Shown here piece by piece: positions 18,345 to 44,246 of a stretch of DNA of 64,000 bases. The position numbers and the translations under genes were made by a program. The notes below the pieces were generated by a model. It ran no database searches and was not told the DNA's origin. It saw nothing but the letters and a program-made list of their open reading frames with translations. The DNA comes from Patescibacteria group bacterium. GTDB taxonomy: Bacteria; Patescibacteriota; Minisyncoccia; Phycocordibacterales; Phycocordibacteraceae. The stretch is taken from NCBI GenBank assembly GCA_004322365.1, contig SCTS01000006.1, forward strand, positions 160,756 through 224,755. The letters are read 5' to 3'. Numbering within the stretch: position 1 is the first letter of the stretch; every line of letters starts with the position of its first letter.

Positions 18345-18428
18345 AGCTGCCAGCTTTCAGCTGCCAGCTTTCAGTGGAAATTACTAAATTCTTAAAGCTG
18401 AAACCTGACAGCCGACACCTGAAAGCTA
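18345..18428. repeat. Heptamer-based repeat block (AGCTGCC/AGCTTTC alternating, then GCTGAAA/CCTGACA/CCTGAAA) in the pilM-pilN intergenic region
   Basis: Sequence agctgccagctttcagctgccagctttcag...aagctgaaacctgacagccgacacctgaaagct. Forms a 114-nt spacer inside the pilus operon. Confidence 0.8.
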
Positions 18429-18434
18429 ATTAAG

Positions 18435-19574
18435 TTACTGATGCAACGCACGAAGTGCGAGTCCAACAGCAGAAGCAAATGATGGGCCAGCGCCTTTGAG
18501 TACGTCAGAGATAAACGCGGGTGCAGCTAATTTTTCAAACGGAGAAGCAATGACAATCCGTGCATCAAAAGAACGCGAAGCTATCTCCTTCAAGCCTTTC
18601 AAAGAAGCTCCTCCTCCTACAAGAACTACTTGCGACACCGCCTTCCCTTCTTTGCGTTGGTACGTCAACAAAATACGACGAGCTTCAGCAAATATGAAAT
18701 CAAGCGCCGCAGATCCCACCTCAGATTCGGACAAGCCTTTATCCCTTTTTATATTTTCAGCCTCTTGAAATGTAGCGCCCATTGACTTTGCCAACGAGAG
18801 CGTTAAATCTTGTCCACCACGACCTATGGTGTGTGAAACATCGATAATGCCAAATTCAATAATATATACACGGGTCGATGATGCTCCCATATCAATAATC
18901 ATTGCAGGCGCAGTGGTATGTTCATAGGAAGCTCGCCCCATGCTAAATGGCTCTACCTCAAAAAATCGCGGAGTGATAGCGGCAGCTTCTGTAACAAGCT
19001 GATATTTAGCAAGGACTGCGTTGTGAATCGCGACAAGAAGCACATCGGTTGAGTGATCTGATTTTGGAACGCCACCTTGTGGACTCAAAAATTTTGCTTC
19101 TTCCTCAGGTATCACAAACCAGTCGAGCGCCACTTCTGTAATTGGCACAGGAATATATTTGCGAGCCTCTATTGGAATCATAGTTGCCAAATCGGCATGA
19201 TCTTTTGTAGGGAGCGTGATGACATTAATGAGACTTCCAGAAAGTGGTACCGAGAATCCGCCAATTTTTGCTGTCACGTTTGCCTCACGGAGCACGTCTT
19301 TCAAGGCTTCCCCAATTTTTTCAGGTGGAGGCATCACCGATTGCCCTACTTCGGCATTTGCATATGGGCCGAGTGCAATCTCCCCGTAGGTCTCCAATAC
19401 CGCACTCCCCTTCACCTCCTTTACCTGCACAATTTTAATGGATGAAGTCCCAATGTCCACCCCAAGAACACTCTCGCCATCTTTCACACTAAAAGATGAA
19501 GCGAGCTGTTTAAATTTTTCAGACAGTGTGCTGAGGGAGAAATCCATACGAGAGACTACGAACGCTGGGTACAA
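18435..19574 (-). CDS. pilM: Type IV pilus assembly protein PilM (actin-like ATPase)
   Basis: 379 aa with LGVDIGTSSIKIV and an FtsA/PilM fold signature. Confidence 0.8.
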   Translation of the reverse strand: MYPAFVVSRMDFSLSTLSEKFKQLASSFSVKDGESVLGVDIGTSSIKIVQVKEVKGSAVLETYGEIALGPYANAEVGQSVMPPPEKIGEALKDVLREANVTAKIGGFSVPLSGSLINVITLPTKDHADLATMIPIEARKYIPVPITEVALDWFVIPEEEAKFLSPQGGVPKSDHSTDVLLVAIHNAVLAKYQLVTEAAAITPRFFEVEPFSMGRASYEHTTAPAMIIDMGASSTRVYIIEFGIIDVSHTIGRGGQDLTLSLAKSMGATFQEAENIKRDKGLSESEVGSAALDFIFAEARRILLTYQRKEGKAVSQVVLVGGGASLKGLKEIASRSFDARIVIASPFEKLAAPAFISDVLKGAGPSFASAVGLALRALHQ

Positions 19575-19673
19575 AGACTAATAATTATCATGGTGAATCC
19601 CTATGTCTCCCGTAGCCCTCTCCTAGAGTGGAATCAAATCTAAGTCAGGGAGTACAATGTTTCCAAGTATATC

Positions 19674-20318
19674 ATGATTGGTCACATTCTCCGGAGAATT
19701 CTTGATGCGTTGATTCCTATATCTAGTGAGTCAGCTATTGCCCGTTCACTTTCAGAAGAAACGCTGGCAGAGCTTCTTCACCCAATGATCCACCGTGATA
19801 AACAGTGGATTGTAGCTCTGTTCCCGTACCGAAACCCAAAAGTTCGCGCACTCATCCGTGCCATAAAATATCGTGGCGAAAAGGCTCCACTTCCTGCACT
19901 GGGTAGAATTTTGGCTGATGAAATCATTCAAATACTTGCCGACAAAAAAACACTCGGAGGATGGCGAAATCCACTTCTCGTTCCCATTCCTAGCTCAAGC
20001 GCTCGCCTAAAATCTCGAGGCTATAACCAAGTTGAGAGAATCGTTCTCGCTACGCTCCCCCATCTTGAAGCGGAGGTTACCTATGCACCTGATGTACTCG
20101 GACGAGAAGACAGAGCAAGCCAAGTAGAAGTATTAAAATCTGAACGTGAGAAAAACATTGCTGGCGCATTTTCCGTTATTCGTCCTGAAAAAGTAAGCGG
20201 CATGCATGTGATTCTTATAGACGATGTCGCCGAGACCGGCACCACACTCTCTGATGCAAAGCGTGCACTCATAGGAGCTGGCGCTTCTGAAGTCATTGCA
20301 ATAACCCTCGCGCACTAA
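19674..20318 (+). CDS. comFC: ComF family protein (ComFC-like phosphoribosyltransferase domain, DNA uptake)
   Basis: 214 aa with a PRTase motif (HVILIDDVAETGTTL) and RGYNQ. Divergent from pilM. Confidence 0.75.
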   Translation: MIGHILRRILDALIPISSESAIARSLSEETLAELLHPMIHRDKQWIVALFPYRNPKVRALIRAIKYRGEKAPLPALGRILADEIIQILADKKTLGGWRNPLLVPIPSSSARLKSRGYNQVERIVLATLPHLEAEVTYAPDVLGREDRASQVEVLKSEREKNIAGAFSVIRPEKVSGMHVILIDDVAETGTTLSDAKRALIGAGASEVIAITLAH

Positions 20319-20350
20319 ACCGGAAAGCAGTTTGCAGTAGGCAGAAAAAA

Positions 20351-20375
20351 ATCCCGACAGGTGTCGGGATTTTTC
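20351..20375 (+). terminator. Rho-independent terminator after comFC
   Basis: Hairpin atcccgacaggtgtcgggat followed by ttttcc. Confidence 0.6.
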
Positions 20376-20422
20376 CTAGAACCTAGAACCTAGAACCTAG
20401 AACCTAGAACCTAGAACCTGAA
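20375..20422. repeat. Heptanucleotide tandem repeat (CCTAGAA) x6 plus a CCTGAAT variant
   Basis: Perfect 7-mer array between the convergent genes comFC and ORF 20423-21262. Confidence 0.9.
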
Positions 20423-21262
20423 TTATTGTGCTCCAGCAGATGCTTCCGTAGTCGTCGTAGTCGACGCCGCAGCTTTCATGCCCTTAAGCGCAGTAATAAT
20501 TTTGTCAGCATCCTTGCGTGCTGTCTGTAAGTCTTTCTGTGCAACTACAATTTGAGCTCGGGCATCCTTGAGTGCCTTTGTGTTTGCAGCTCTTTTTGTA
20601 GCATCACCATTATCAGGGACAAGGGTAACGATTGCGTTTACCGCTGCTTGCGCTTGCAAGCTCGCATCTGCAAGTTTTGCTTTGTACTCTTCAAAGACTA
20701 CGCGAATTGCTGTTACGTCATTTCCTGCCGTAGCTGCTGCCGCAATACGCGTTTCAAATTTTACCGCAATGAGTTGCATCGTGGTTGAAATTGTCACAAT
20801 ACGATCAGCCGCAGTAATTATCCCTCCTTGAGGAATAATGAGTGCATAGATACGGTACGAATCGGTAATGGATTTCACATCCCCCTTCAATGTTTCAAGA
20901 TCAGTATCTGCATTAATTTTAGCCTTAAGTGCATTCAGTGCATTCACTTGTGCTGTCAAAGTTCCCGCAATAGAAGCCTTGTCCGCGTCGGAAAGATTTT
21001 TCATTCCTTGTACGCGAGCGATGAGAGTATTAAGGTTTGTGACTCTTCTGTCAATTTCTTGATTTCCACGGTCCTTACCTCGCATCAATGCAACTGACTG
21101 CCCCGCTGTTGCTTTTACTTCTACTTTTGTTGCTGTAGGCGTAGTGACAGTAGCACCTGCATTTACGCTCGTAGTTACCGCCTCCTCAGCCAATGCGAAT
21201 GTTGGAGATAGAAGAATAGCGAAAGCGACAAGAGGAAGAAGTACTGGGGTTATTTTTTTCAT
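20423..21262 (-). CDS. Secreted Ala-rich coiled-coil protein, hypothetical
   Basis: 279 aa with a signal peptide, long Ala/Lys/Thr-rich helical segments and a C-terminal T-rich tail. Confidence 0.5.
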   Translation of the reverse strand: MKKITPVLLPLVAFAILLSPTFALAEEAVTTSVNAGATVTTPTATKVEVKATAGQSVALMRGKDRGNQEIDRRVTNLNTLIARVQGMKNLSDADKASIAGTLTAQVNALNALKAKINADTDLETLKGDVKSITDSYRIYALIIPQGGIITAADRIVTISTTMQLIAVKFETRIAAAATAGNDVTAIRVVFEEYKAKLADASLQAQAAVNAIVTLVPDNGDATKRAANTKALKDARAQIVVAQKDLQTARKDADKIITALKGMKAAASTTTTTEASAGAQ

Positions 21263-21288
21263 ACTGTTAGATTATTAGAGAATAAGAT

Positions 21289-21576
21289 TTACTGCGCAAC
21301 CGCCTTATCGTTGAGACCTGCATCAATTGCCGTTGTGTCTCCATTCATTGCGGTCATATCTGCATCCACTGATGCCACATCCTGCATTAATGAAGCGTCC
21401 GAAGTGTCAGCGCCCGTTGCGAGTGTTGGTCCTTGAGGAACTGCGGGCTGTGTCTCGGTAGGAGCTACAGCAACAGGGGCTGGCGCTGGACGTGTTGATG
21501 CATACCAATAAAAACCACCACCGAGAACAACAGCTGCGAGTATAATTCCACTGGCTACTTTTATATTTCCTGACAT
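21289..21576 (-). CDS. Small membrane-anchored hypothetical protein
   Basis: 95 aa with an N-terminal TM and a Pro/Ala/Thr-rich remainder. Confidence 0.4.
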   Translation of the reverse strand: MSGNIKVASGIILAAVVLGGGFYWYASTRPAPAPVAVAPTETQPAVPQGPTLATGADTSDASLMQDVASVDADMTAMNGDTTAIDAGLNDKAVAQ

Positions 21577-21683
21577 ATATGTAAGAAGTACTTAGATAAT
21601 TAGATAATGAGCACAGACTGATAAAGCCGTACCTTTCTATTATACCGCACGAGCGAAGATGTCACTGTGGACTCAGAGCCCTT

Positions 21684-22316
21684 CTATCTTAGTGTTTCTT
21701 TTGAGGCAAGAATGGCAAGTATCTCCGTCCATGACGCTACACGAGTAACGCCCTCAGGTACTACCCCTTGATTCCACGGCGTATCTAGGAGCAATACGGG
21801 GATCCCCACACTCGCTACATCAGATGCAAAGTGAAGCGCATCATCAATAAAAAGATCAGCTCCAATTTCAGTCATCACTGACGACTTCAAACGCTTTTTT
21901 GAAGGATCAGTTTCATAGTGACCCGTGAAATGGATTTCACGATAGAGCCCTAAGAAATTTTTAGTAAGCCAGTCAATAGTGTTGTCACGCATTCCTTCAT
22001 GCCGACCTGTCACCACAGCTATCTCGTAAGTTTTTCCAAGATGTTTCAAAGCATCATAGGCTCCAAAAACTGCCTCAGCTTGGTGATGAAACTCTGTACC
22101 TACAAACTCATCAATACGCCTTTGTGTTTCTTCGGGCGCACAATTCCAAACCGTTCCTAAATTGTAGTCAACAACTTCATCGCGCACATAGTTAGTGCCG
22201 TATGTCGCATTATGAAAGCTTGCCATGGCGTCTCCCGTGCGCGCCAATACATCATCAAGATCAACACCGAGAACTTTTTTCGGCTTCTGCGACTCATGTG
22301 GTGAAGATAAAATCAT
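21684..22316 (-). CDS. HAD-superfamily 5'(3')-deoxyribonucleotidase-like hydrolase
   Basis: 210 aa with HAD motif I VLGVDLDDVL and an NT5C-like layout. Confidence 0.6.
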   Translation of the reverse strand: MILSSPHESQKPKKVLGVDLDDVLARTGDAMASFHNATYGTNYVRDEVVDYNLGTVWNCAPEETQRRIDEFVGTEFHHQAEAVFGAYDALKHLGKTYEIAVVTGRHEGMRDNTIDWLTKNFLGLYREIHFTGHYETDPSKKRLKSSVMTEIGADLFIDDALHFASDVASVGIPVLLLDTPWNQGVVPEGVTRVASWTEILAILASKETLR

Positions 22317-22377
22317 ACGTTCTCGCTACCGTAATAGCTTTACGGCTATTCGTCAACAAAACCTCACATCACTCAGC

Positions 22378-23403
22378 TCAGTTTCCGCAAATAGTCTTCA
22401 TGAGTACTGCACACACTTGGTACGGATCCATGTTCGCCGCAGGGCGTCTGTCTTCAAGATATCCCTTGCCATCGTTTGCGGTCGCCATGGGAATACGGAT
22501 AGATGCACCGCGGTCAGAAACACCGTAGCGAAATTCGTTGATACTACAAGTTTCATGTTTGCCTGTGAGTCGCTCTTCGTTCCCTGCCCCATACACAGCA
22601 ATATGTTCGTGATGTTTCCGTTTCAATTTCTCACAAGCAACTTTTATATGTTTAAGTCCACCCGAGGCACGCATCGCCTTCGTTGAAAAGTTTGTATGTG
22701 CACCTGCACCATTCCAATCTCCTTTCACTGGCTTTGGTGCATATGAAACTGACATATCGTGATCTTCACCAAGTCTCTCAAGAAGCCATCTTGCAACCCA
22801 AAGTTGGTCGGCTACAGCAAGGGGTCCGACAGGCCCTACCTGAAATTCCCACTGCCCCGGCATCACTTCTGCATTAATACCTGAAAGTTCTATCCCCGCT
22901 TTCAGACAAGCCTCCATATGTTCTTCCACCAAATCTCTACCGACAATATTTTCTGTACCTACACCGCAATAGTACGGACCTTGGGGGCCTGGAAATCCTA
23001 CTTTAGGAAATCCAAGTGGTCTGCCATTCTGGAAAAGCGTGTACTCCTGTTCAATACCAAACCACGCGCCAGCCGTTTGATATTTTTTAGCAATCGCACG
23101 AAGCTCTGCACGAGTGTTTGAAGGATGCACATCACCGTTCGCTTGATATACCTCACAAAGAACTAAAAGATGCGGGGCTCCGCGCAAAGGATCGGGCAAT
23201 AAAAAAACCGGTATAAGCCGGCAATCACTGAATCTTCCTTCTGCTTGTTCGGTCGATGAGCCATCAAATCCCCATTCCGGTATATCTTTTAATTTTGTAA
23301 CGGGGCCTTTAATAATTTTGGTCTTAGAGCGAATGCCCGCATTGGGCTTCCGTCCGTCGAGCCAAAGGTACTCAACTTCTACATATTTAGTAAGGGTAGT
23401 CAT
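22378..23403 (-). CDS. glnA: Glutamine synthetase, type II (eukaryote-like GSII)
   Basis: 341 aa with WLDGRK, GFDGSST, EVMPGQWEFQVGP and KPVKGDWNGAGAHTNFS. Length and motifs fit GSII rather than the 470-aa GSI. Confidence 0.8.
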   Translation of the reverse strand: MTTLTKYVEVEYLWLDGRKPNAGIRSKTKIIKGPVTKLKDIPEWGFDGSSTEQAEGRFSDCRLIPVFLLPDPLRGAPHLLVLCEVYQANGDVHPSNTRAELRAIAKKYQTAGAWFGIEQEYTLFQNGRPLGFPKVGFPGPQGPYYCGVGTENIVGRDLVEEHMEACLKAGIELSGINAEVMPGQWEFQVGPVGPLAVADQLWVARWLLERLGEDHDMSVSYAPKPVKGDWNGAGAHTNFSTKAMRASGGLKHIKVACEKLKRKHHEHIAVYGAGNEERLTGKHETCSINEFRYGVSDRGASIRIPMATANDGKGYLEDRRPAANMDPYQVCAVLMKTICGN

Positions 23404-23470
23404 AATTCATTCTATCAAGAACAACACGCTGAATGGCAGAGATGGGTGTGGAAAGTACACGCCGAAGAAA

Positions 23471-23550
23471 ATTGCCCCATGCGGGGCTTATTTTCCTGCG
23501 GACGAAGTTTTGGCAAAACTATTTTTTGGGGAAAGAATTTGCCAAAACTT
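23471..23550 (-). promoter_or_regulatory. Leader of the GSII gene with a 13-bp inverted repeat and a terminator-like hairpin
   Basis: Inverted repeat aagttttggcaaa / tttgccaaaactt at 23505-23550, and a GC hairpin gccccatgcggggc followed by a U-rich tract at 23471-23494. Both lie 5' of the start codon at 23403. Confidence 0.35.
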
Positions 23551-23658
23551 CGACTGATTTGTTTTTGAATTCGAATGTCGCAAATGGAAAAGGAGGGGTT
23601 TGGGGAGGAACAAAGAGCTAGAGCGTGATGCTGATTTTTCAGTCCCCGTTATACGAAC

Positions 23659-24747
23659 TCAGTGATCTGACGGAGTTGTCGAAGCTATGACGGAAAACGA
23701 CCGGCTGCATGAATTAATGTCGCCATTTGAGTTCGTTGCCTCCATGACCAGAGATATTTTCTGGGGCGTATTTACGGTTCTCGTGACAGAACCGCTAGTT
23801 CCAAGCGGTTCTGTGTTTAATCCAAGGAGTGTGTTTGTTTCCGTTCCGTTAGCCCACTTCGCACCCGTTGCGTTATCTGTACTCCAGGAGAGTGCAAAAC
23901 TCTGACCTGCAACAGAATTGTAAGGTTGGAGGGATATTTTGCAGGTCGGCGGTGGCCATGCAAAAACCTTACTCTGGGTTTTAAAAACAGAAACACGCTT
24001 TAGTTCGAATCGGTTCACATGAACCAATGAATACGCTTCATATTCCAACGTATACAAACCCGGAACGAGTGTCTCGACTGAATGATTGGGATTCGGGTCG
24101 AGGAAAAACGCGACCGCCGGATAGCCACCGTCAGCGCGGGGTGGTTTTTCAGGGTCGATGGCTCCGTCCAAACCATACTTACGTTCTCCGTTTTGCGAGA
24201 GGTAAAACATTTGGCCATATAAAGTGCCCGCAGTTACTCTTGCATCATATGAAGTGTCCGCAGTTACTCCTGCATATAGACTCTTCGGCATGCCGTAGAT
24301 ATAGATGTCTTCTGCGCCACCCCATCCGCTTAAAGAACTGCTGAGCACCACTTTGGCCGAAGGCGTACTCTGTGTTGTTTGTGTTGCAGGCTGGGCCACC
24401 GTTTTTTTTACTTCAGTTTCATTTGCTACGACAGGTGCGGTTTTTGTTTCTTTTGGGGCAACGGAACCTGTATTCTCTTTCAGCTTATCCTGTGTAGTAC
24501 CTACTTCTGTTTTCTTAGTTGTAGTATCTGCGACCGCTGTAGTTGTAGAAGTCGCGATTTGAGCCGGCTGTGCTTTTGGCATCGCCTTGAAAACATTCCA
24601 CACATTCCAACTCAGAGGATTCCACCATGCAGCAAAAGCAATTTGAGGCGCAATAAAAACGGCAACGACGAGAGCTAAAAAGACTTTTTTGTAAGTCTGC
24701 ATATCAAATTTTAGAGTAAAAGCATTATAGCTCAAATACCAAGTCAA
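23659..24747 (-). CDS. Secreted/membrane-anchored hypothetical protein
   Basis: 362 aa with an N-terminal TM, a Thr/Lys-rich linker and a C-terminal globular region containing Cys. Confidence 0.5.
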   Translation of the reverse strand: MTWYLSYNAFTLKFDMQTYKKVFLALVVAVFIAPQIAFAAWWNPLSWNVWNVFKAMPKAQPAQIATSTTTAVADTTTKKTEVGTTQDKLKENTGSVAPKETKTAPVVANETEVKKTVAQPATQTTQSTPSAKVVLSSSLSGWGGAEDIYIYGMPKSLYAGVTADTSYDARVTAGTLYGQMFYLSQNGERKYGLDGAIDPEKPPRADGGYPAVAFFLDPNPNHSVETLVPGLYTLEYEAYSLVHVNRFELKRVSVFKTQSKVFAWPPPTCKISLQPYNSVAGQSFALSWSTDNATGAKWANGTETNTLLGLNTEPLGTSGSVTRTVNTPQKISLVMEATNSNGDINSCSRSFSVIASTTPSDH

Positions 24748-25034
24748 AAGAGGGATTCGGTCACAAGTAAATTTCCTGACGGAAATTTCTTGCTACCCCG
24801 ACTCGGTACTTTTGCCTTGAGCTATCGCTCAAACAAAAGTATACCTCCGTCATTCGAATCCCTCACGTAACACATGCCTATGTGTTACGTGAGGGATTCG
24901 GTCACGAATCACTAAGTATTTTACTCCTAGCGCTCGTAAAATACTAAGTGTTCTCGACCCCGGCTCAGAAAAGCTCTCCCAGAGCTTTTCTTCCGCCTTT
25001 CGAATCCCAGCACCTATTCCACATAAATAAAAAA

Positions 25035-25065
25035 GCGGGTGCACAAAAGCACCCATTTTTTTACT
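25035..25065 (-). terminator. Bidirectional hairpin terminator 3' of tRNA-Ser
   Basis: Stem gggtgc...gcaccc flanked by A and T runs. Confidence 0.6.
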
Positions 25066-25068
25066 TTG

Positions 25069-25156
25069 CGGAGAGGGAGGGATTCGAACCCTCGGAACCC
25101 TTTAGAGGTTCAACACATTAGCAGTGTGCTCCATTCGACCGCTCTGGCACCTCTCC
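25069..25156 (-). tRNA. tRNA-Ser (anticodon GCU)
   Basis: Manual fold of an 88-nt class II tRNA: acceptor GGAGAGG/CCTCTCC, D-stem CCA/TGG, anticodon loop CUGCUAA, long variable arm, T-arm GAGGG-TTCGAAT-CCCTC, discriminator G. Confidence 0.85.
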
Positions 25157-25235
25157 TTGAGAACAGTCAATTCATAACATGAATTGACTGTTCTAGCGAA
25201 CAATCAGAGTAAGTTTCTATGAATTTTAGAGCAAA

Positions 25236-25982: not shown

Positions 25983-26007
25983 ATAGATACTCACATTGAG
26001 AACGAAA

Positions 26008-26036
26008 AAAGAACACCTCGCGGTGTTCTTTTTTTA
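26008..26036 (+). terminator. Rho-independent terminator after ppiB
   Basis: Hairpin gaacacctcgcggtgttc followed by a T-run. Confidence 0.55.
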
Positions 26037-26075
26037 CATGGCATACCAGTGTAAAAAACCGTACACTGATGGTAA

Positions 26076-27083: not shown

Positions 27084-27107
27084 TCGCACATGGGTGCGGG
27101 GGGGATA

Positions 27108-30677: not shown

Positions 30678-30831
30678 AAACTAGAGAGTGTGCTCGCCAA
30701 AAAAGCACCTGCCGCACGTTTTTCCTGACTCTGAGACATCCCTCTTGCAACTACACATACAACTACACACAAACGCACCCGCTTCGTGTCTCGATACGCC
30801 TACATATTTCTCAGAACGTAGTTTCATATAG

Positions 30832-30904
30832 TCCACCCTCTTGGACTCGAACCAAGGACCCTCGAGGTATAAGCTCGATGCTCTAACCAACTGAGCTAAG
30901 GGTG
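30832..30904 (-). tRNA. tRNA-Ile (anticodon UAU)
   Basis: Manual fold of 73 nt: acceptor CCACCCT/AGGGTGG, D-arm GCTC-AGTTGGTTA-GAGC, anticodon arm TCGAG-CTTATAC-CTCGA, T-arm CTTGG-TTCGAGT-CCAAG, discriminator A. Confidence 0.7.
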
Positions 30905-30939
30905 GATATCCGCACTATATATCCTCAAGTGCGAATAAA

Positions 30940-31140: not shown

Positions 31141-31145
31141 ACACT

Positions 31146-35951: not shown

Positions 35952-36000
35952 ATTAGCCAGTCCCCGAAAACATCCTGAGCAACGTCGAAGGATTTTCCCG

Positions 36001-36440: not shown

Positions 36441-36464
36441 GAACAAGCAAATAGTTTTGCTTGT

Positions 36465-36566
36465 GTGGAGAGTCGAAAGCCGGAGCCATGCCGTTTACGG
36501 CAGGCGAGGCCGGGCAGGAACCACTTAGCGAGTCCGCGAGCTTAGTGAGTTGACGCCGACTCTTCC
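36465..36566 (+). ncRNA. ffs: Signal recognition particle RNA (small 4.5S type)
   Basis: Terminal helix ggagagtcg...cgactcttcc. The domain IV-like core CGUUUACGGCAGGCGAGGCCGGGCAGGAACCAC resembles E. coli UGUUUACCAGGUCAGGUCCGGAAGGAAGCAGCC. A terminator hairpin aaacccgcttaatgcgggttttt follows at 36578-36602. Confidence 0.55.
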
Positions 36567-36688
36567 CAGAAAAATTGCAAACCCGCTTAATGCGGGTTTT
36601 TGTATGTGTGGAGAATAGACCCTTGCTTCTCGTTGATAGTCAGCGTATAACAACCTGAATCATGTAGTGGTTTTTACTCACCAATATC

Positions 36689-37699
36689 ATGAACACTAAA
36701 TCAAACACAGAATCTATGGGAGAAAACGGTGAACATCGTGAGGGGAAACGAATAGAGCGAGCTGAAATAAAAATGCTTGGCCCTATAAGCTATATAGCTC
36801 CACACGAAGGGCTATGGACTGGCTCAATATCAAGAAAAGCCCACCAATCTGAACGAGTAACAGGGGCATTGCAAGAAATACCCCATTATTTTGTGATGGC
36901 TGATACTGATGCCCCTGAGCGCTGCATTGATGGTCGTCCTAAAGTAAAAAAAGGTGCGCGTGGTCATCTACAAGAAATGCACCTTGGTCCTCAGACTCCC
37001 GGAGGCACTCCCGCAATGACATTGGCATACAGAATCATGAATGCTGGGACACTCCCTGAAGGAAAGAAGTTTTGTGACGATTTGAAAGACACTATAGGCC
37101 TCTGTAAAAAACACGGAATATCCTTTGGTGGCCACATTGATGACCATAACCATGGGTTCAACTGTGGGTGCGGTGCAATTGATAAAATCCCAGAAATATT
37201 CAAGAAGATACTTGAGCCAGAGTTCAAAGAATCGGCTTCTGTATATTTGAAGGCAATTCTTGGGGAGCGATTTGACGCAGATGTTATGCAGAGCTTAATA
37301 GGGCGTGCCGATGAGTTAAATGCGCAAAACGGTAACTATCTTGAACAAACAGCAGATGGTGATTATCTCTTCAGAAAAAAAGTGATTGAGACCCTTGAAA
37401 CGGAAGCAACAAATGTACAGCCAGTAGAAGAATTAATAGGAGACCACCGCGAGATTGCATTGGTCGTAAACTTGGTTCCTGGTAGCACGTTCGACAGGGA
37501 TGCGTTTACAAAAGCACAGGGTTCTGAGGTACAAGCGTTTAACTATGACTTCTGGGTGAGTGAAGATTTTGCAAATAAACTATTCAAAAGTGAGAAAAAA
37601 CGTACCGAATTCCTTACTATCCGAGCCATGCTTGGAATTGCTACAGCTATGGTGCTCACAGACGGTTCAATGGAGCTCATTCTCCGCACAAAAAAATAG
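36689..37699 (+). CDS. Hypothetical protein with Cys/His-rich putative metal-binding motifs
   Basis: 336 aa with CIDGRP, HLGPQTPGGTP and HIDDHNHGFNCGCGAID. No confident family assignment. Confidence 0.5.
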   Translation: MNTKSNTESMGENGEHREGKRIERAEIKMLGPISYIAPHEGLWTGSISRKAHQSERVTGALQEIPHYFVMADTDAPERCIDGRPKVKKGARGHLQEMHLGPQTPGGTPAMTLAYRIMNAGTLPEGKKFCDDLKDTIGLCKKHGISFGGHIDDHNHGFNCGCGAIDKIPEIFKKILEPEFKESASVYLKAILGERFDADVMQSLIGRADELNAQNGNYLEQTADGDYLFRKKVIETLETEATNVQPVEELIGDHREIALVVNLVPGSTFDRDAFTKAQGSEVQAFNYDFWVSEDFANKLFKSEKKRTEFLTIRAMLGIATAMVLTDGSMELILRTKK

Positions 37700-37732
37700 A
37701 CTAAGAATGTGCTAGAATAGCCCGAAACAACC

Positions 37733-38266
37733 TTGAGTACTCAACGAACACGCATCAACGCGCAAATACGCGCACCCGAACTTCGGGTCATCGGACCAAA
37801 CGGCGAAAACGTCGGCGTTGTTACGCTCGCCGAAGCTATGGCGCAAGCGAAAGCTGTAGAGTTGGACCTAATAGAGGTTTCACCAAACGCGACCCCACCA
37901 GTTGCGAAAATAATGGATTATGGTAAATTTCAATACGAGCAACAGAAAAAAGACCGAGAAATAAGGGCTAAATCGCACATTACAGAGACAAAAGCAGTCC
38001 AAGTTGAGGTAGGTACCGGAGAAAACGATCTTCTCCGAAAGGCCCGCCAAGCAGCTGGATGGCTCAAAGAAGGACACCGAGTACGAGTAGAGCTCTTCCT
38101 TAAGGGACGCTACAAGTACATGGATCCGGCATTTCTCAAGGAAAGATTGAAGCGTTTCGTGCTTTTGGTTCCTGAAGATTACCGTATCGCTGAGGACATA
38201 CAGAAAGGTCCAAAAGGGTTCAACATGATCCTAGAAAAGGCCGGAAAACAGAAACCAGCAAAATAA
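37733..38266 (+). CDS. infC: Translation initiation factor IF-3
   Basis: 177 aa with RINAQIRAPELRVIGPNGENVGVV..DLIEVSPNATPPVAKIMDYGKFQYEQQKK. Confidence 0.85.
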   Translation: MSTQRTRINAQIRAPELRVIGPNGENVGVVTLAEAMAQAKAVELDLIEVSPNATPPVAKIMDYGKFQYEQQKKDREIRAKSHITETKAVQVEVGTGENDLLRKARQAAGWLKEGHRVRVELFLKGRYKYMDPAFLKERLKRFVLLVPEDYRIAEDIQKGPKGFNMILEKAGKQKPAK

Positions 38267-38270
38267 CAAC

Positions 38271-38462
38271 ATGAAAACGAACAAATCATACACAAAGCGT
38301 CTCCGCGTAACCCGAAACGGCAAGATTGTTGCACGCAAAGGTGGACAGGATCATTTCAATTCTCGTGACAGCCGAAAAACTCGCACTGTGAAAGCTCGTG
38401 CGAAAGCTGTAGAGATGAGTCCTGCAATGCGCGCTCGATTCCTTCCAGGAAACGGCAAGTAA
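38271..38462 (+). CDS. rpmI: 50S ribosomal protein L35
   Basis: 63 aa. MKTNKSYTKRLRVTRNGKIVARKGG. Confidence 0.9.
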   Translation: MKTNKSYTKRLRVTRNGKIVARKGGQDHFNSRDSRKTRTVKARAKAVEMSPAMRARFLPGNGK

Positions 38463-38498
38463 ATTTTTCCAACCACTAAATACTAATCACTAATCCAT

Positions 38499-38849
38499 AT
38501 GTCTAGAGTAAAAGGAGGACCAAAGGCGATGAAGCGCCGTCGCAATATATTGAAAGCCGCAAAAGGCTATCGTTTTGGACGCTCAACAAAGACAAAGCAA
38601 GCGCTCGAAGCTTTGAAACACGCTGGTAAGTACGCATTCCGCGATCGCAGAGCTAAGAAAAGAACTATGCGAGGACTCGCAATTGTGCGCATCAACGCAG
38701 CACTTCGTGAGAGAGGTTTCAAAAACTACAGCACCTTCATGGGCGCAGTAAAGAAAGCAAATATTGAACTCGACCGCAAAGTACTTGCAGAAATTGCATC
38801 AGAATATCCAGAAGCATTCGACCGCGTTTTGAAGAAGGTCACCGGATAA
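38499..38849 (+). CDS. rplT: 50S ribosomal protein L20
   Basis: 116 aa. MSRVKGGPKAMKRRRNILKAAKGYRFGRS. Confidence 0.9.
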   Translation: MSRVKGGPKAMKRRRNILKAAKGYRFGRSTKTKQALEALKHAGKYAFRDRRAKKRTMRGLAIVRINAALRERGFKNYSTFMGAVKKANIELDRKVLAEIASEYPEAFDRVLKKVTG

Positions 38850-38861
38850 CATTCCGAAATT

Positions 38862-38888
38862 TAAAAATCCCGCAAAAGCGGGATTTTT
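38862..38888. terminator. Bidirectional rho-independent terminator between rplT and the convergent beta-CASP gene
   Basis: Sequence aaaaatcccgcaaaagcgggatttttt. Confidence 0.6.
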
Positions 38889-40322
38889 TTATACAAGAGG
38901 AATATCGTATGTTTCCCCTTCCCTCGGCACATCAACAGGAATATTAAGAAACCCGGCGATGCGTTGAGCCAAGAAAGTTGCGGCTTCGGTCTCCCCCAAT
39001 ATTACAAAGACATGCTTCGGATTAACATTTTCAGCGAATGTCATAAGGTCATCTCTGTCAGCGTGCGCAGAAAATCCGTCCGTTGATAGTATTGTTGCTC
39101 GCACCTTAACTTCAACACCATCTATAGACACTGTCCATGCACCGTCTTTAAGCCTCCTCCCTAAACTCCCAGGCACCTGATAGCCTACAAGCAAGAGTGT
39201 GGTCGATTTCTGTGGGAGATACTTCGCCTCATGCCTTCTAATGCGCCCACCGTGACTCATACCAGCACCAGCAATGATTATTTTAGGCCCTGGATGCCTG
39301 TCTATTGCGTCCGACTCATCAGGATGCACACTTACCTTTAGGCTTGGGAATGAAAATGGGTCATCTCCGCTCTCCAGTCGAGTGCGTATGTCAGCACGAA
39401 GAAATGCTGGATATTTTCTGTACACATCAGTTACTTTTGCAGCAAGGGGTGAGTCCATAAATACTGCCACCGGAGGTATAACACCGTTCGTGATGGCTTT
39501 ATCTAATGATGCAAGAATAATTTGCGTACGCTCCAGTGAAAACGCAGGTATAAGAAGTGTGCCTTGGTTGGCAACAACACCTTTCACTGCCGACAGAAGT
39601 GCTTGCTCACTCTCTTCAAGTGAACCGTGCGTTTTATTTCCATACACACTTTCTGTCACCAGATACTCCACACCAGTGGGAACTTCCCTATCAGGAACAA
39701 GGGCGGCAGGCACACGACCTAAGTCTCCTGTAAACAAAATTTTCTTTCCAAAAATATCAAGCAGCACCGTTGCGGACCCTAAAATATGCCCCGCATTATG
39801 GAGTGTTGCAGTAATACCAGGCGCAAGTTCTAAGACCTTCCCGTATGCCACTTCATCAATATATTCAACTGCTCGTATCACATCTTCAGTCGCGTATGGC
39901 GGTTCATCGTTACACCGCTTCGCTTCGAGGGCGATTATCTTTACAGAGTCTTCTAGCATTATTGGCGTGAGCGCTTTGGTGGGAGCCGTTGTAAGCGCGC
40001 GCCCCTTAAAACCATCCTTAACAAGCTTAGGGAATAACCCAATGTGGTCAGCGTGCGCATGGGTAAAAAAAACAACATTAATAGTTGCAGGGTCGTAGGA
40101 GAATACCTCTCTATTGGTTGACTCACAGAACCGCTCACCTTGTGCAAGCCCACAATCAATCAGTATCCGTGTAGTAGTCTCTCCGTCTTTTGCCTCAACA
40201 AGAAAATTTGAACCTGTAACGCGCCTGGCTCCGCGTGCAAACGAAATAGAAATAGTTTTTCCCATATTCTCTATAGTAGCAAACGCTAGCGTATATAGAT
40301 TAGAAAAAATAAAACTCGCCAA
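38889..40322 (-). CDS. Metallo-beta-lactamase fold / beta-CASP family ribonuclease (RNase J / CPSF-like)
   Basis: HAHADH motif, further His/Asp metal ligands and a C-terminal beta-CASP-like region. The likely start is the internal ATG (MGKTISISF..). Confidence 0.7.
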   Translation of the reverse strand: MASFIFSNLYTLAFATIENMGKTISISFARGARRVTGSNFLVEAKDGETTTRILIDCGLAQGERFCESTNREVFSYDPATINVVFFTHAHADHIGLFPKLVKDGFKGRALTTAPTKALTPIMLEDSVKIIALEAKRCNDEPPYATEDVIRAVEYIDEVAYGKVLELAPGITATLHNAGHILGSATVLLDIFGKKILFTGDLGRVPAALVPDREVPTGVEYLVTESVYGNKTHGSLEESEQALLSAVKGVVANQGTLLIPAFSLERTQIILASLDKAITNGVIPPVAVFMDSPLAAKVTDVYRKYPAFLRADIRTRLESGDDPFSFPSLKVSVHPDESDAIDRHPGPKIIIAGAGMSHGGRIRRHEAKYLPQKSTTLLLVGYQVPGSLGRRLKDGAWTVSIDGVEVKVRATILSTDGFSAHADRDDLMTFAENVNPKHVFVILGETEAATFLAQRIAGFLNIPVDVPREGETYDIPLV

Positions 40323-40565
40323 AGACGCACAGCGCGTAGCGAGTTTACCAATAGGGTCACTGACGGAGTATTAACCTTAGAGCCGAAGCTCCAGGTGGGT
40401 GCTCGCAACATCGTGTGTATCGGATTCTCCGGAGAGATTCGCCAGCACAGAGTGATATAAAGCTCCCTAAAGTTTTTCAACGAGGTTAATACTCCGTCAC
40501 CAACCCCATTAAAAGCGTACCACGCTTTTAAGCTTTCAGTTCTGGAATTCAATACTCTTCCCTCT

Positions 40566-40600
40566 GGAAGCTGGAAGCTGGAAGCTGGAAGCTGGAAGCT
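40566..40600. repeat. Heptanucleotide tandem repeat (GGAAGCT) x5 abutting the ndk stop codon
   Basis: Sequence ggaagctggaagctggaagctggaagctggaagct. The last unit overlaps the stop codon of ndk (cta at 40599-40601). Confidence 0.9.
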
Positions 40601-41210
40601 ACTCCATTATTCCATCCAAGTTCACATCGTAAAGAATCTGTTCCTGCACAATACGATACTTCAAAATCTCTTCAGGCTTAAACCACACAGCAATTTCGCG
40701 TGATGCTTCTTCAGGACTTTCAGAACAATGAACGAGGTTTCTAACAGCACGACTCTGTACCGATGAGTGGTCGTACGAGTCCACAGTGTAGTCACCGCGG
40801 ATAGTACCCACATCCGATGTCTTTGGTTCTGTGGCACCTACAAGCTTCTTCACAACGGCTACTGATTCATTCCCTTCAACAACCATCATGAGTACAGGAC
40901 CTGCGGTCATGAATTTCACTATTGAATCTATTATTTCTTTACCATACCCAAGCGCATCCTTCTCTATTGGCAAGTTATGAGTTGTTCGGTCATTCAATAT
41001 TCGAGTTCCTTTCTCAAGAAACCACTTTTCGTCCTTGTTGTAATGACGGACAAGTTGGTCCTCTGTCGCAAGTCCAAATTTAAACGCAACAAATTTCAAC
41101 CCTGTTCTCTCTATACGCTTCATTATCTCTCCGATAAGAGAACGCTGTACTGCGTCAGGCTTCAATATAATAAGCGTACGCTCATTTTCAAATTGTGCAT
41201 TTGTATTCAT
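40599..41210 (-). CDS. ndk: Nucleoside diphosphate kinase (long form with insertions)
   Basis: 203 aa with TLIILKPDAVQR and a catalytic His region. Confidence 0.8.
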   Translation of the reverse strand: MNTNAQFENERTLIILKPDAVQRSLIGEIMKRIERTGLKFVAFKFGLATEDQLVRHYNKDEKWFLEKGTRILNDRTTHNLPIEKDALGYGKEIIDSIVKFMTAGPVLMMVVEGNESVAVVKKLVGATEPKTSDVGTIRGDYTVDSYDHSSVQSRAVRNLVHCSESPEEASREIAVWFKPEEILKYRIVQEQILYDVNLDGIME

Positions 41211-41264
41211 TGAGGCGACTATACCACTCTACGGCGCGAAGCGCCACAGAGCAGGTGCTAGGTA

Positions 41265-41330
41265 TTAGGTTATAGGTGCTAGCTTTTCTGATTCTGAATT
41301 TAAAGCTAGAACCTAGCACCTATAACCTAA
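41265..41330. repeat. 18-bp inverted repeat built from degenerate heptamer units, with a 30-nt loop
   Basis: Arms ttaggttataggtgctag and ctagcacctataacctaa. The right arm reads as gctagaa cctagca cctataa cctaaat. Lies between the stop of ORF 41361-44246 and the ndk start. Confidence 0.8.
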
Positions 41331-41360
41331 ATGATCCCTGCGGATCCGACGAAGCGTCGC

Positions 41361-44246
41361 CTACGGCTTTTGGTTCTCTCGCATCTGATTATACTTCTGG
41401 TGGATATCAGCCTCCACAGCTTCGCGGGCTCGGCCGTAGCGTTGATACGAAATCTGCTTCAATGCATCAATGTTCAAGAAGTCGCCAGGGGTAAACGGAA
41501 TAGTCTCAATAGTAAAACCAGGGGTAGGCTTTCCTCCAGCAAGAAGCTTTAAATATGAATGGAAGTTGTCAATTTTTAGGAAGTCGGAAACCTCAAAGCC
41601 TGGAAACTGTTTCGCAATATACTCAGCATCATCGGGGCCTACACGAAACACTGCCATGGTGCCAACGTTACCAAATACTGAATCCTTAATTTTTGGAAGG
41701 AGCTGAGAAATATACTGGTGTGCCATCGTCATAGAGAGACGGAATTTGCGTGCTTCTGAGAGGATTGTGGAAATAGTATCGGTCGTAATATTTTGGAACT
41801 CGTCAATGTAGAGATAGAAGTTCGGAGGATTCAAATGCAAATACTCCGTACGCGCAAGTGCGGTCATCATAATTTTGCCCACAATCACAAGACCAATCAA
41901 GTTTGCGTTTACATCACCCAGTCGGCCTTTAGACAGGTTTACAAGAAGGATTTTCTTGTTGTCCATAATATCTTTGAAATTAAAAGCGGAGCGTTGCTGT
42001 CCGATGATCGGACGCATAATTTCGTTCGCAATGAAGATATCGAATTTTGATGTGATGTACGGCACCACATTGCGCAAATCTCCTTCTCCACGCACATTTT
42101 CTGCAATATCTTCCCAGAAGTGCGTTACCACGGGATTTTTACAGCGAGACAACTTCAATGCGCGGAATTCATCGTCAGCCAAAACACGGGAAATATCCAT
42201 CAAGGTCGAGCCAGTATCAGGATCTTCAAGCACGAGCATTGTGGCATTACGGAAGTACTGCTCAAAGATAGGACCGAAGGCTTCCGGCACATCGCCGTAG
42301 AGTTTCTTAAAAATTTTAAACATCTCATCCACCACGAATGTTTTTTGCTCTGGAAAGCGTGGATCATACTCAAGCATGTTGAGTCCCATGGGGCGTGCAG
42401 TATAGGCAGGATCAAAATAAATAAGATCATCAATGCGGTCTTTGGGAATACGGGAAAGAATCTCCAATACATCCACACCGTGCGGGTCAATGAAACACAC
42501 CCCTTCCCCATTCTCAATGTCCTGAATGATCATATTCTTCAGGAAGTTCGTCTTACCAGTACCGGTTTGTCCAATGGTATACATGTGGCGCAGACGGTCA
42601 TCTGGAGTGAAATGAATTGGTGTTGCAATATTTGAGTAACGATTAATGCCGATGACAATGCCTTTCTCAGGAAGCCCTGGTGGTGCAGGAGCGAGCTTAG
42701 CACTTGCAGTTTTTGCTTCACGAGATGCTGTACCTCCTGCAATAGTGAGATGAAAAATAGTTGAGAGCTCTGCCAAATTCATCGGCATGAGTGGAATCTT
42801 ATGCATCAAAGGTGTTGGGGCAGCCTTGCGTGTCCATTCAAGCCACAGCTGATAGAAAAATCCTTCATGTGCTTGGCGATCAAACATGCGGAAGATGAAC
42901 AGACGGAGAAACTCCCGCAATTCCTTTCTACCTTTTATATGCTTAAACCGAAGGCGGTTTGCTTTCGCATCTTCATACTGCCCAAAAGTATTTTCAAGTT
43001 CCGTCAAAATTGCCATTGCCCTCTCTTTGGTGCGAGCAGACGCAACAATACGCAAATTCACTCCCACAATGACACTCTTGAGCTTTTTTGACACTGCGTC
43101 AGCTGCAAAAGAATCAATATTCTTACTATCATCCTTCTTTTTTTCTTCAGAGCTTTCCAAAAAACTAGTGAAGCCTTTGTTCAATCCCTGAAAAAATCGA
43201 CGCATTGGTGAGTAATGCTCCATATACATATTCTTTCTGAATATGTCATTTGCAGAACCTTTACCTTTGTTGAGCTCATCCAACACATAACGAATACGCT
43301 TGGAATGGTAATCACCTGCGGGAGCAACGGTAATTTGAAGCGCAGCCCCCTCACCTTCTTTAGTGATTTTTGAAAGTGCTGCGAGCGTCACATTCATAGG
43401 GTCGTGACTAAACTCTTCTGATGTCTTCAAAGGAATTGGTGGCGGGCGCTGGTAGTAGGCGGACGCCGCAACAGTCACACCAAATTGGTTAAAAAGATTG
43501 TAGTCATCTTTTTTTTCAACAATACGTGCACGGGGAAACATGGCAAAAATCTGCTTTTCAAATGTTTCACGTTTTGCTCGAGGGACTGACAAATAAAAGA
43601 CTGCTTCCTCTTTAGTGTGCGAAACAGCAATTTCCATTGTGAAATGCTGGAGGTGAATCTTTTTGCGCTTGTGCCAATCTTTCAAGAAAATTGTATCGGG
43701 GAGAGCAACAAAAGGAATCATACTCAAATAAAACTGCTCCATCTGCATGCAAACATCCTTAAGAGACCCTCCTGGTTTCCCTGGGGCAGCTTCAGGTACG
43801 GCTATATCCAAGAGAACAAAATCAAGAGCCACAGCGAGCGGATCGTTAGCGCTCAGCCCTGGAATTGGATGTCCAGCTGTCCGGTATTGCACAAGCAGGC
43901 GATGAAAATCATCTTCGAGGTGAGGATTATCAATGCGATCAAGCTCCTTCATGACAGCCTTGAATCCTTGAGTATGCAAAATACCCAACAACTCCTCCAT
44001 GTCTTTGTCGTTCGAGTCAGGTGTAAGTTCAAGAATGATGCCCTGCTTCTGCTCTTGCTCTACCCCCTCTGGTGCCTCCGAAAGTGTAGGGAGAACAGAC
44101 GCTTCGACAGGTAAGGCCGGATCTCCTCGATGTCCCCTTCCCCCTCCACCCGAGCGCGCGGTCTCACGCAACTTCGTCAGTTGATGCTCAGGCGAAAGTT
44201 TCGCTGCTTTTGTATCAATTCCTTTATTAGGATTAAACCCTGGCAT
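41361..44246 (-). CDS. Large protein with C-terminal TraD/VirD4/HerA-FtsK-like P-loop ATPase domain and an uncharacterised roughly 540-aa N-terminal region
   Basis: 961 aa with Walker A TIGQTGTGKTNFLKN, followed by CFIDPHGVD and a Walker B-like LYIDEFQN. The N-terminal half is acidic and coiled with no known motif. Copy 2 of the 24-nt motif overlaps its stop codon. Confidence 0.6.
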   Translation of the reverse strand: MPGFNPNKGIDTKAAKLSPEHQLTKLRETARSGGGGRGHRGDPALPVEASVLPTLSEAPEGVEQEQKQGIILELTPDSNDKDMEELLGILHTQGFKAVMKELDRIDNPHLEDDFHRLLVQYRTAGHPIPGLSANDPLAVALDFVLLDIAVPEAAPGKPGGSLKDVCMQMEQFYLSMIPFVALPDTIFLKDWHKRKKIHLQHFTMEIAVSHTKEEAVFYLSVPRAKRETFEKQIFAMFPRARIVEKKDDYNLFNQFGVTVAASAYYQRPPPIPLKTSEEFSHDPMNVTLAALSKITKEGEGAALQITVAPAGDYHSKRIRYVLDELNKGKGSANDIFRKNMYMEHYSPMRRFFQGLNKGFTSFLESSEEKKKDDSKNIDSFAADAVSKKLKSVIVGVNLRIVASARTKERAMAILTELENTFGQYEDAKANRLRFKHIKGRKELREFLRLFIFRMFDRQAHEGFFYQLWLEWTRKAAPTPLMHKIPLMPMNLAELSTIFHLTIAGGTASREAKTASAKLAPAPPGLPEKGIVIGINRYSNIATPIHFTPDDRLRHMYTIGQTGTGKTNFLKNMIIQDIENGEGVCFIDPHGVDVLEILSRIPKDRIDDLIYFDPAYTARPMGLNMLEYDPRFPEQKTFVVDEMFKIFKKLYGDVPEAFGPIFEQYFRNATMLVLEDPDTGSTLMDISRVLADDEFRALKLSRCKNPVVTHFWEDIAENVRGEGDLRNVVPYITSKFDIFIANEIMRPIIGQQRSAFNFKDIMDNKKILLVNLSKGRLGDVNANLIGLVIVGKIMMTALARTEYLHLNPPNFYLYIDEFQNITTDTISTILSEARKFRLSMTMAHQYISQLLPKIKDSVFGNVGTMAVFRVGPDDAEYIAKQFPGFEVSDFLKIDNFHSYLKLLAGGKPTPGFTIETIPFTPGDFLNIDALKQISYQRYGRAREAVEADIHQKYNQMRENQKP

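Follow-up and report, generated by a model that had tools for sequence, protein, structure and literature searches.

Heptamer arrays and a recurring motif in the window

We analysed 64,000 nt of contig SCTS01000006.1 of the Patescibacteria group bacterium assembly GCA_004322365.1 (hereafter the window), where tandem heptamer repeats and a 24-nt motif occur in the leaders of pilin-like genes, downstream of pilM, at the end of ndk and at the end of a gene for a 961-aa ATPase. A sequence-only reading of this stretch had assigned the heptamers to one family with the consensus SCTRRAA, arrayed at five sites, and had listed the 24-nt motif as something additional. All five sites were recovered by Tandem Repeats Finder (TRF) and exact-run scans. 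The tracts called are (CCTAGAA)6.4 (20375-20419), (CTGGAAG)5.3 (40564-40600) and a double unit of 14 nt in 2.1 copies (18345-18374); two further tracts with period 7 are degenerate (41253-41282 and 41306-41329), and three lie in pilin leaders (9011-9035, 9573-9606 and 10923-10937). The motif is likewise present twice (10899-10922 and 41341-41364) with 22 of 24 positions identical, and the similarity of the two copies extends to 34 nt (10887-10924 versus 41328-41365, minus strand). According to our analysis, heptamer arrays and motif are parts of one small hairpin-forming dispersed repeat of a narrow clade of Paceibacterota (Parcubacteria, candidate phyla radiation or CPR), a composite that the earlier reading had missed. 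The members found in the window are as follows:

10887-10924, minus strand: core copy 1, YAG followed by the 28-nt double hairpin GCGACGCTTCGTCGGTTCCGAAGGGAAC and A (covariance model R1, 58.7 bits)
10920-10937, minus strand: array C, CAGCTTC CAGCTTC TAG, abutting core copy 1 in phase within the same pilin leader
9569-9606, minus strand: array B, six NNNNYAG units (CAGCTTT, CAGGTTT and others), in frame, immediately behind the start codon (ATG 9618) of a pilin-like gene
9011-9036, minus strand: array A, TAG followed by three GTTCCAG units, in the in-frame leader of the next pilin-like gene (ATG 9055)
18345-18428, unstranded: element D, in the spacer from the pilM stop (18435) to the start of the following pilus gene (18320)
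20375-20420, minus strand: array E, (GTTCTAG)6.4, read as CCTAGAA on the plus strand
40564-40601, minus strand: array F, TAG(CTTCCAG)5, the first TAG being the ndk stop codon
41328-41365, minus strand: core copy 2, TAG followed by GCGACGCTTCGTCGGATCCGCAGGGATC and A (covariance model R1, 60.0 bits)
41252-41330, unstranded: stem-loop arrays, with a sense array at 41302-41330 (minus strand; TAGGTTA TAGGTGC TAGGTTC TAG) and an inverted array at 41252-41286
38476-38492, minus strand: short array of three units, TAGTGAT TAGTATT TAG, between the IF3 and L20 genes, upstream of L20 and antisense to both; a probable family member
48472-48491, plus strand: short array of three units, TAGCTTT TAGCTTT TAG, at the L15/SecY junction and overlapping the end of the L15 open reading frame (ORF); family membership uncertain

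Core copy 1 lies in the in-frame leader-coding region of a pilin-like gene (ATG 10945), where it encodes ...ASRRRFVGSEGN... and is followed by the N_methyl motif. The TAG at 41361-41363 serves twice, as stop codon for the 961-aa DUF8128/VirD4-like ATPase and as the YAG that abuts core copy 2. Directly downstream of this copy, the arrays at 41252-41330 form a stem-loop of 18-21 bp; the 18-bp inverted repeat of degenerate units described earlier is indeed perfect over 18 nt, and the whole repeat measures 21 nt with 95% complementarity (41265-41285 and 41310-41330). Element D had been described as alternating units and reverse-complement units, which did not hold. It consists instead of a sense array (18391-18428, minus strand), a spacer and an inverted array (18345-18374) that together form an imperfect hairpin of ~30 bp on the gene strand, followed by UUUUUU on the mRNA strand, and it contains inverted repeats in several 7-nt registers as well as terminator-like matches. 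Array E stands between convergent genes, with the stop of a minus-strand gene (20423-21262) on one side and a bidirectional terminator hairpin (~20347-20374) on the other; CTAG being a palindrome, TAG recurs every 7 nt on either strand.

A heptamer family with the register NNNNYAG

Read on the minus strand, on which most genes of the window are encoded, the conserved register is NNNNYAG, with TAG or CAG every 7 nt. Every array in the window takes this form, with units such as CTTCCAG, GTTCTAG, CTTTCAG and GGTGCTAG. The consensus SCTRRAA thus describes the unit type of this genome and is inferior to NNNNYAG as a general description, relatives carrying mostly TAGSGKT. While T-type units (YAGCTTC, TAGGTTC, TAGGTGC) prevail in the window, G-type units (TAGGGTT, TAGCGTT, TAGTGGT) prevail in relatives. 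Within heterogeneous arrays, conservation is highest for A (0.93), G (0.89) and position 5 (0.85), and ranges from 0.64 to 0.80 at the remaining positions.

The preference for a period of 7 nt is strict. The window contains 12 arrays with at least three YAG at 7-nt spacing and 0-2 at periods 4, 5, 6, 8, 10 and 11. In loci from related metagenome-assembled genomes (MAGs), arrays of at least four YAG units with period 7 numbered 25 in 80 kb and 29 in 71 kb, with none at any other period within 5-10, so that the arrays are by no means confined to the window. A motif-blind scan of lag identity over 271 kb returned 75 regions for period 7 and 1-15 for other periods, and YAG was part of the consensus unit in 72 of these 75 period-7 regions (39% by chance). 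Since arrays are contained in independent assemblies built by different assemblers, we do not regard them as assembly artefacts.

These counts bear on the simplest alternative, namely that chance produced unrelated microsatellites and that the 24-nt motif recurs by coincidence. The single word SCTRRAA is indeed not over-represented in the window (98 versus 82 +/- 9 in dinucleotide shuffles), as such a reading expects. Tandem pairs of the word, on the other hand, occur 15 times against 0.06 expected from the same shuffles, and period 7 alone is enriched. Together with the 58 unique, covarying core copies in a single clade and the physical, in-phase linkage of core and arrays described below, this refutes the alternative, to which we assign practically no probability.

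G-type arrays of several related MAGs, including L012, L019 and L022 (L numbers denote comparison loci fetched from related strains, MAGs and metagenomes), hold runs such as GGGTTTAGGGTTTAG, which equal the plant telomere heptamer TTTAGGG. Runs of this kind are a possible origin of false "plant telomere" matches in metagenome screens.

The 28-nt core and its linkage to the arrays

The 28-nt core, GCGAYGCYTCRTCGGNTYCGNAGGGANC, consists of two adjacent 5-bp hairpins, CGAYG-CYT-CRTCG and GNTYC-GNAG-GGANC. Its two copies in the window differ at three positions, two of which belong together as an A-T to T-A exchange that preserves a pair of hairpin 2. In the set of 58 unique copies, the pair that had been left unconstrained in the search is AT in 40, TA in 10, GC in 7 and GT in 1, with no mismatches, and a second covarying pair is CG in 31, TA in 20, TG in 3 and CA in 4. 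Of all cells in the covariance-model alignment, 98.8% form pairs, as compared to 20-60% when the partners are slid. Wobble and mismatch variants are present on both strands. Compensatory changes thus affect two pairs. Like repetitive extragenic palindromic (REP) sequences and bacterial interspersed mosaic elements (BIMEs), the core is a short imperfect palindrome that can form hairpins. Save for such changes it is nearly invariant, and its conservation exceeds that of adjacent coding DNA.

Other interpretations of the core sequence were considered and rejected. An alternative fold, CTTCG...CGAAG, has a variable loop base without compensation. The swaps observed (A-T to T-A, G-C) contradict a direct-repeat protein site (GGATC N5 GGATC), since they preserve pairing at the cost of the direct repeat. 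The covarying pairs also do not fit a likeness to a tRNA T-arm or a UUCG tetraloop. No Rfam family reached its gathering score over the elements, where only sub-threshold miRNA-hairpin noise was obtained (41259-41337).

Core and arrays are physically linked. YAG directly precedes the core in 51 of 54 cases (TAG in 47 of the 58 unique copies), at least three in-phase heptamers lie upstream of it in 29 of 54 and five heptamers in 15, and a short array often resumes 3 nt past it. In 13 of 54 cases an inverted (CTRNNNN) array follows no more than 150 nt downstream, giving a long stem-loop. On one strand, the canonical element thus runs from 1-6 degenerate NNNNYAG heptamers through the 28-nt core, often a short second array, and a spacer to inverted heptamers, and when complete it folds as a long stem-loop. 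The ATPase-ndk spacer of the window is a full example with core, array, spacer and inverted array (-49.4 kcal/mol, z = -4.0), and the spacer downstream of pilM carries a core-less hairpin in which array and inverted array pair, with a U-run behind it (-39.9 kcal/mol for the RNA fold, z = -4.8); both fold much better than shuffles. Because YAG is common to all units, several 7-nt registers are open for pairing of the arms. Solo arrays exist as well and make up the majority of those in the window.

Some spacers hold more than one core, as direct or partial tandem copies (L016, L031, L051). In related MAGs and metagenomes these compound cores (L016, L026, L031, L051, L052, L074) take two forms, which are as follows: (i) a full core with the GGTTCC...GGGAAC hairpin variant and then a 5'-truncated second core starting GCTTCGTCGG..., and (ii) two full cores in tandem. 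Such arrangements are suggestive of internal duplication or of nested insertion.

Distribution and variation across genomes

A scan for the core pattern in one genome per species (185,579 species, GTDB) returned 30 stretches, all of them in six related MAGs. These are labelled Paceibacterota, Parcubacteria or Patescibacteria, and two are labelled Saccharibacteria. With a looser pattern, in which one pair was left unconstrained, 32 stretches were found in only three metagenomes of the Joint Genome Institute (JGI), one of which is the source of an already identified MAG. Viral contigs (IMG/VR) yielded no core matches, and a phage or viral origin was rejected on this ground. The hosts of the repeat family are ultra-small groundwater bacteria. 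We found no paper describing such repeats in the searchable literature on CPR bacteria, and the family is apparently without earlier description.

Copy number is modest, with strict matches at ~11-14 per roughly 0.8 Mb and a density of ~1 core per 40-70 kb (two in the window). The cores are spread over many contigs per MAG and are almost all intergenic, that is, extragenic and dispersed in the same sense as REP sequences and BIMEs. With the core present ~11 times in each of two of the six MAGs and period-7 arrays throughout the clade, the proposal of a genome-wide short-repeat system rather than isolated microsatellites was borne out.

Elements are kept at orthologous sites across species, and their arrays vary in unit number and unit sequence; copy number, for which a test of polymorphism had been proposed, is therefore polymorphic both between strains and between species. 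Array E has 6.4 units in the window and in one strain, and ~1.5 in L001-L003, where the flanking protein is identical. The array at the 3' end of ndk counts five units in the window, six in L007 and L009, and four in L035, which belongs to another species; at the same site L006 and L008 have unrelated sequence, with an acetyltransferase gene after ndk, and L010 has a different sequence with scattered TAG only. In the orthologous set L024, L034 and L037, 4.5, 1.5 and 4.5 units stand beside the same core. The ATPase-ndk spacer of L007 and L009 measures 33 nt and lacks the whole element; in L006, L008 and L010 the element is made of different heptamer units, and L006 and L010 carry the same core despite these different unit types. 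Element D is identical in L001.

The bidirectional terminator hairpin that borders array E (20347-20374) shows multiple compensatory changes between the window and L001-L003 (CCCGACAGGTGTCGGG versus CTCCGGCATATGCCGGAG), the flanking protein being identical.

Genomic context and orientation

The arrays lie almost exclusively between genes: 75 of 77 are intergenic although ~86% of the window is coding, and the two coding ones are pilin-leader arrays of the window. Spacers that bear a core are tandem in ~13 cases, convergent in three and divergent in four, which is about the background proportion. Within tandem spacers the core is sense in ~8 and antisense in ~5 cases, and unpaired arrays between co-directional genes are sense in 11 and antisense in 23. 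Relative to local GC skew, orientations number 24 versus 18. The flanking genes are of housekeeping type (GroEL, EF-P, LepA, NusB, YbeY, aminoacyl-tRNA synthetases, RNR, HU, DprA, RpoC), and no transposase is found among the reported families of 41 flanking genes. By its behaviour, the element is DNA-level, orientation-neutral intergenic material. Orientation is thus random with respect to both transcription and GC skew, and the earlier suggestion of recombinogenic modules or protein-binding sites found no support in our results.

Several functional assignments were rejected on the basis of these contexts. The density is far too low for a DNA-uptake sequence, strand polarity being absent as well, and the orientation relative to GC skew does not fit a polar motif like Chi or KOPS (FtsK-orienting polar sequences). 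A role as terminator only disagrees with contexts that mirror background spacer types and with the many copies that are antisense or in divergent regions. An integron attC site (GTTRRRY beside a palindrome) was ruled out as GTTAGGC occurs in a minority of copies, the others having GATAGGC, GCTAGGC or AGCAGGC, and as co-oriented cassette arrays are lacking. DnaG primase recognizes the trinucleotides CTA and CTG, the complement of YAG. We rejected primase sites because CTR in the window lies opposite to the inferred lagging-strand template strand and overall orientation is unbiased.

The regular spacing could alternatively mean that the arrays are platforms for an oligomeric, HutP- or TRAP-like protein that reads NAG at 7-nt spacing on single-stranded RNA (or single-stranded DNA) and that, by binding beside or within stem-loops, would switch their folding and thereby control termination or translation. 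TRAP reads (G/U)AG repeats. HutP recognises three XAG triplets with 4-nt spacers (in Bacillus subtilis three per face), contacts A and G, and has two sites flanking a terminator stem (PMC2425495). The arrays resemble such sites in that they usually comprise at least three units, and thus at least three NAG triplets with 4-nt spacers, in that A and G are the most conserved bases and period 7 the only one, and in that they often flank or form stems, including terminator stems. They differ from HutP sites, which belong to one operon leader, in being genome-wide and spread across dozens of unrelated housekeeping loci, in preferring Y at the first position and in the additional conservation of position 5. 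A sense-strand bias is lacking; given 23 antisense versus 11 sense unpaired arrays, most mRNAs would display CUR instead of NAG. The sequence-only reading had proposed to look for a DNA-binding protein matching the unit, and no candidate emerged from a tblastn search with HutP and TRAP sequences, which is a weak test as it covered ~0.39 Mb and not whole genomes. We consider this explanation very doubtful.

According to a further possibility, the element serves as REP-type substrate for a single-strand-specific nuclease or transposase of the HUH type (RAYT/IS200-like or IS91/Helitron-like; RAYT, REP-associated tyrosine transposase) that would recognise the hairpins and cut at the adjacent YAG (CTR on the opposite strand), and repeated cutting and rejoining would produce the in-phase heptamer tail. 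In Escherichia coli, REP sequences have GTAG beside the palindrome, and the ends of Helitrons and IS91 carry a subterminal hairpin. RAYTs cut at REP sequences, and their genes usually have such sequences on the flanks. Comparable to this, the conserved trinucleotide abuts a conserved hairpin in nearly all copies, the hairpins are backed by covariation, and the arrays stand in phase on one side of the core. Wobble and mismatch variants on both strands and a neutral orientation are what is expected at the DNA level, and the presence/absence polymorphism is flanked by TAG on both sides. Against this, copies persist at orthologous sites in different species and are not arranged as inverted doublets (REPINs), transposases are absent from the reported flanking families, and no ORF resembling a Y1 transposase or RAYT was detected in 0.61 Mb around 58 copies with IS200 TnpA and YafM queries, again a weak test. 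On balance, we regard such a substrate as unlikely.

Copies in pilin leaders

Four consecutive pilin-like genes have ATG starts that overlap or closely follow the preceding stop (ATGA overlaps or a 2-nt gap); the gene containing array A, for example, is coupled to its upstream neighbour by an ATGA overlap. All four have unusually long leaders ahead of the cleavage motif G/A|(F/L)TLIE. Arrays A, B and C and one core are situated in frame within these leaders, three of the four genes carrying arrays just past the start codon. In-frame YAGs of these copies are all CAG and TAGs occur out of frame only (a single one in array B). Core copy 1 is identical in L041 and L042, and the strain substitutions downstream of it are synonymous in the pilin frame. 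The preserved frame, the in-frame CAGs and the synonymous substitutions indicate that the repeat regions are translated. An alternative downstream start was rejected since no in-frame ATG, GTG or TTG exists past the repeats and the ATGA overlaps speak for starts further upstream.

Array A is identical in L041-L043. Array B is absent from six assemblies (L041-L046), which have the 10-aa leader MKFFFTKTIRA|FTLIE, and the leader of the window is longer by 13 codons (39 nt), in frame. The likeliest explanation is that leader insertions are tolerated as the prepilin peptidase, which is encoded nearby, cuts the leader off; three copies may have entered the pseudopilin leader-coding regions in frame and persisted for this reason.

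A change of one or two units in either direction would shift the leader frame, and phase variation is therefore possible. The pilin-gene arrays might accordingly be read as contingency loci, in which changes of one or two units toggle minor pilins and the coupled downstream genes, the intergenic arrays being by-products. The 7-nt unit, which is not divisible by three, lies in the 5' coding region just past the start in three of four consecutive, coupled genes; these are the sole coding arrays among 77, the gain or loss of array B left the frame intact, and single-unit changes do occur elsewhere, as at ndk (five versus six). The tracts are, however, short or imperfect (two to four perfect units), and no frameshifted allele was seen in the assembled contigs (as opposed to reads), arrays A and C being identical in all recovered strains. 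With the great majority of arrays intergenic and beside housekeeping genes, phase variation is not the general role of the family, and we judge the contingency-locus explanation distinctly improbable.

The second pilin gene (9621-10310) contains a perfect 21-bp inverted repeat (10227-10247 and 10275-10295; CAAAGTACCTATACGAAAGAC and GTCTTTCGTATAGGTACTTTG) in the region coding for its 38-aa leader, so that all four pilin leaders hold repeats or hairpins. This inverted repeat was rejected as a dispersed repeat because it occurred only at the orthologous locus in the fetched loci.

Comparison with known repeats and proposed role

The hairpin-plus-heptamer family is clade-restricted and intergenic, its core is structurally constrained, and its arrays vary in length. 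The reading we favour, and hold to be reasonably likely, is a lineage-specific dispersed element of the REP/BIME kind with slippage-prone heptamer arrays. It shares with the REP sequences, BIMEs and REPINs of Enterobacteria and Pseudomonas the short (~30 nt), GC-rich imperfect palindrome, its intergenic location between housekeeping genes in either orientation, a short conserved motif abutting the palindrome (GTAG in E. coli, YAG here), mosaic clusters with other short motifs, and conservation in a narrow lineage. It differs from them by having two tandem 5-bp hairpins in place of one long palindrome, a density of about one copy per 40-70 kb as compared to hundreds per genome, and in-phase heptamer arrays flanking the core. 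It further has no sequence similarity to them and no inverted doublets, the inverted parts being heptamer arrays and not cores, and a weak search of 0.61 Mb around the copies gave no RAYT.

We posit that slipped-strand mispairing lengthens and shortens the arrays; since YAG and position 5 are common to every unit, re-pairing of the strands is possible in any register of 7 nt. The core might be maintained by selection on the hairpins or by gene conversion among copies, and the element may act as structural DNA like REP sequences and BIMEs. Stem-loops at gene ends would probably affect transcripts through termination or 3'-end protection, and shifts in array length could retune spacing.

A number of observations weigh against this interpretation. 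No mobilising enzyme was found, by a weak test that covered only ~0.6 Mb around the repeats. Slippage on its own predicts homogeneous units and no preferred period, and what we see is period 7 only, with AG kept while other positions drift, which points to an extra constraint such as a binding factor or a specific generating enzyme. A role as terminator or transcript stabiliser is at odds with the fact that 3' ends are not favoured, many copies being antisense or in divergent promoter regions, and that a U-run is present at element D only. Conservation of the core across species could also reflect a specific function. Taken together, the 7-nt period, conserved AG, heterogeneous units and in-phase core might indicate a dedicated machinery, either a ring-shaped NAG-reading protein or a hairpin-guided HUH nuclease cutting YAG, that would be genome-wide and specific to Paceibacterota and would render the pilus switchable; we see only a slim chance of this. 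If true, it would constitute a new Paceibacterota-specific regulatory or mobile system in a lineage with few classical regulators, and the pilin-leader copies would make type IV pilus components switchable.

Other known repeats show partial similarity to the favoured REP/BIME-like element. The short tandemly repeated repetitive (STRR) sequences, heptanucleotide repeats reportedly described by Mazel et al. in 1990 from heterocystous cyanobacteria, have several unit variants per genome, are mostly intergenic and lineage-specific, and are of unknown function (STRR1 unit CCCCAGT). The term STRR is in use in papers on cyanobacteria. The present arrays are likewise tandem heptanucleotide units in intergenic DNA of one lineage; they differ in their units (YAGSKKY) and hosts (Paceibacterota MAGs), in being mostly heterogeneous with a fixed YAG phase, in their attachment to a hairpin core, and in often forming inverted pairs. 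Rickettsia palindromic elements (RPE), which are 100-150 bp long and frequently coding, are said (Ogata et al., in 2000) to sit in frame in protein-coding genes without destroying them. Core and arrays resemble RPE where they lie in frame in prepilin leaders, although just two of 77 arrays are coding, exclusively in cleaved pilin leaders, and RPE are longer. Simple-sequence repeats that undergo phase variation, such as those of 7 bp upstream of the Haemophilus influenzae hmw genes, are similar in having 7-nt units whose number varies between strains and which are placed either within 5' coding regions or in the interval from a regulatory element to a start codon. They differ from our arrays, for which no frameshifted alleles were seen, whose tracts are short or imperfect, and most of which stand beside housekeeping genes.

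CPR/Patescibacteria genomes are tiny and gene-dense, with few known regulators and little mobile DNA. A structured, clade-specific repeat with hypervariable tails therefore offers a rare handle on transcript ends or expression tuning in these bacteria. The arrays hint at the mutational processes of CPR, namely slippage, possibly without mismatch repair, and may be used as a strain-level marker for groundwater populations. Copies in prepilin leaders suggest that cleaved signal sequences can serve as safe harbours for selfish or structural DNA, and they raise the possibility of pilus phase variation in episymbiotic bacteria.

Other features of the window

The 961-aa ATPase (41361-44246, minus strand) has weak TraG/VirD4 coupling-protein-like domains and DUF8128 in precomputed annotations; it has housekeeping genes as neighbours and is conserved throughout the clade. 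In the IF3-L20 region of the window, the L35 gene seen in L007 was not mapped. A 30-nt tandem duplication (24216-24275; 2.0 copies, 90% match) overlaps the ORF 23659-24747 and is unrelated to the heptamer family. The window further contains a tRNA-Ile (30831-30905, minus strand) with the anticodon TAT, which is uncommon among bacteria, and a tmRNA at 36001-395. Between ndk and an RNase J-like gene lies a conserved structured region of ~170 nt (40342-40514, minus strand), which is nearly identical in L007, L009 and L010. It matches 6S RNA (RF00013) over the full length below threshold (19.7 bits versus a gathering score of 46.4, E = 0.16) and is probably a divergent 6S RNA of CPR bacteria.

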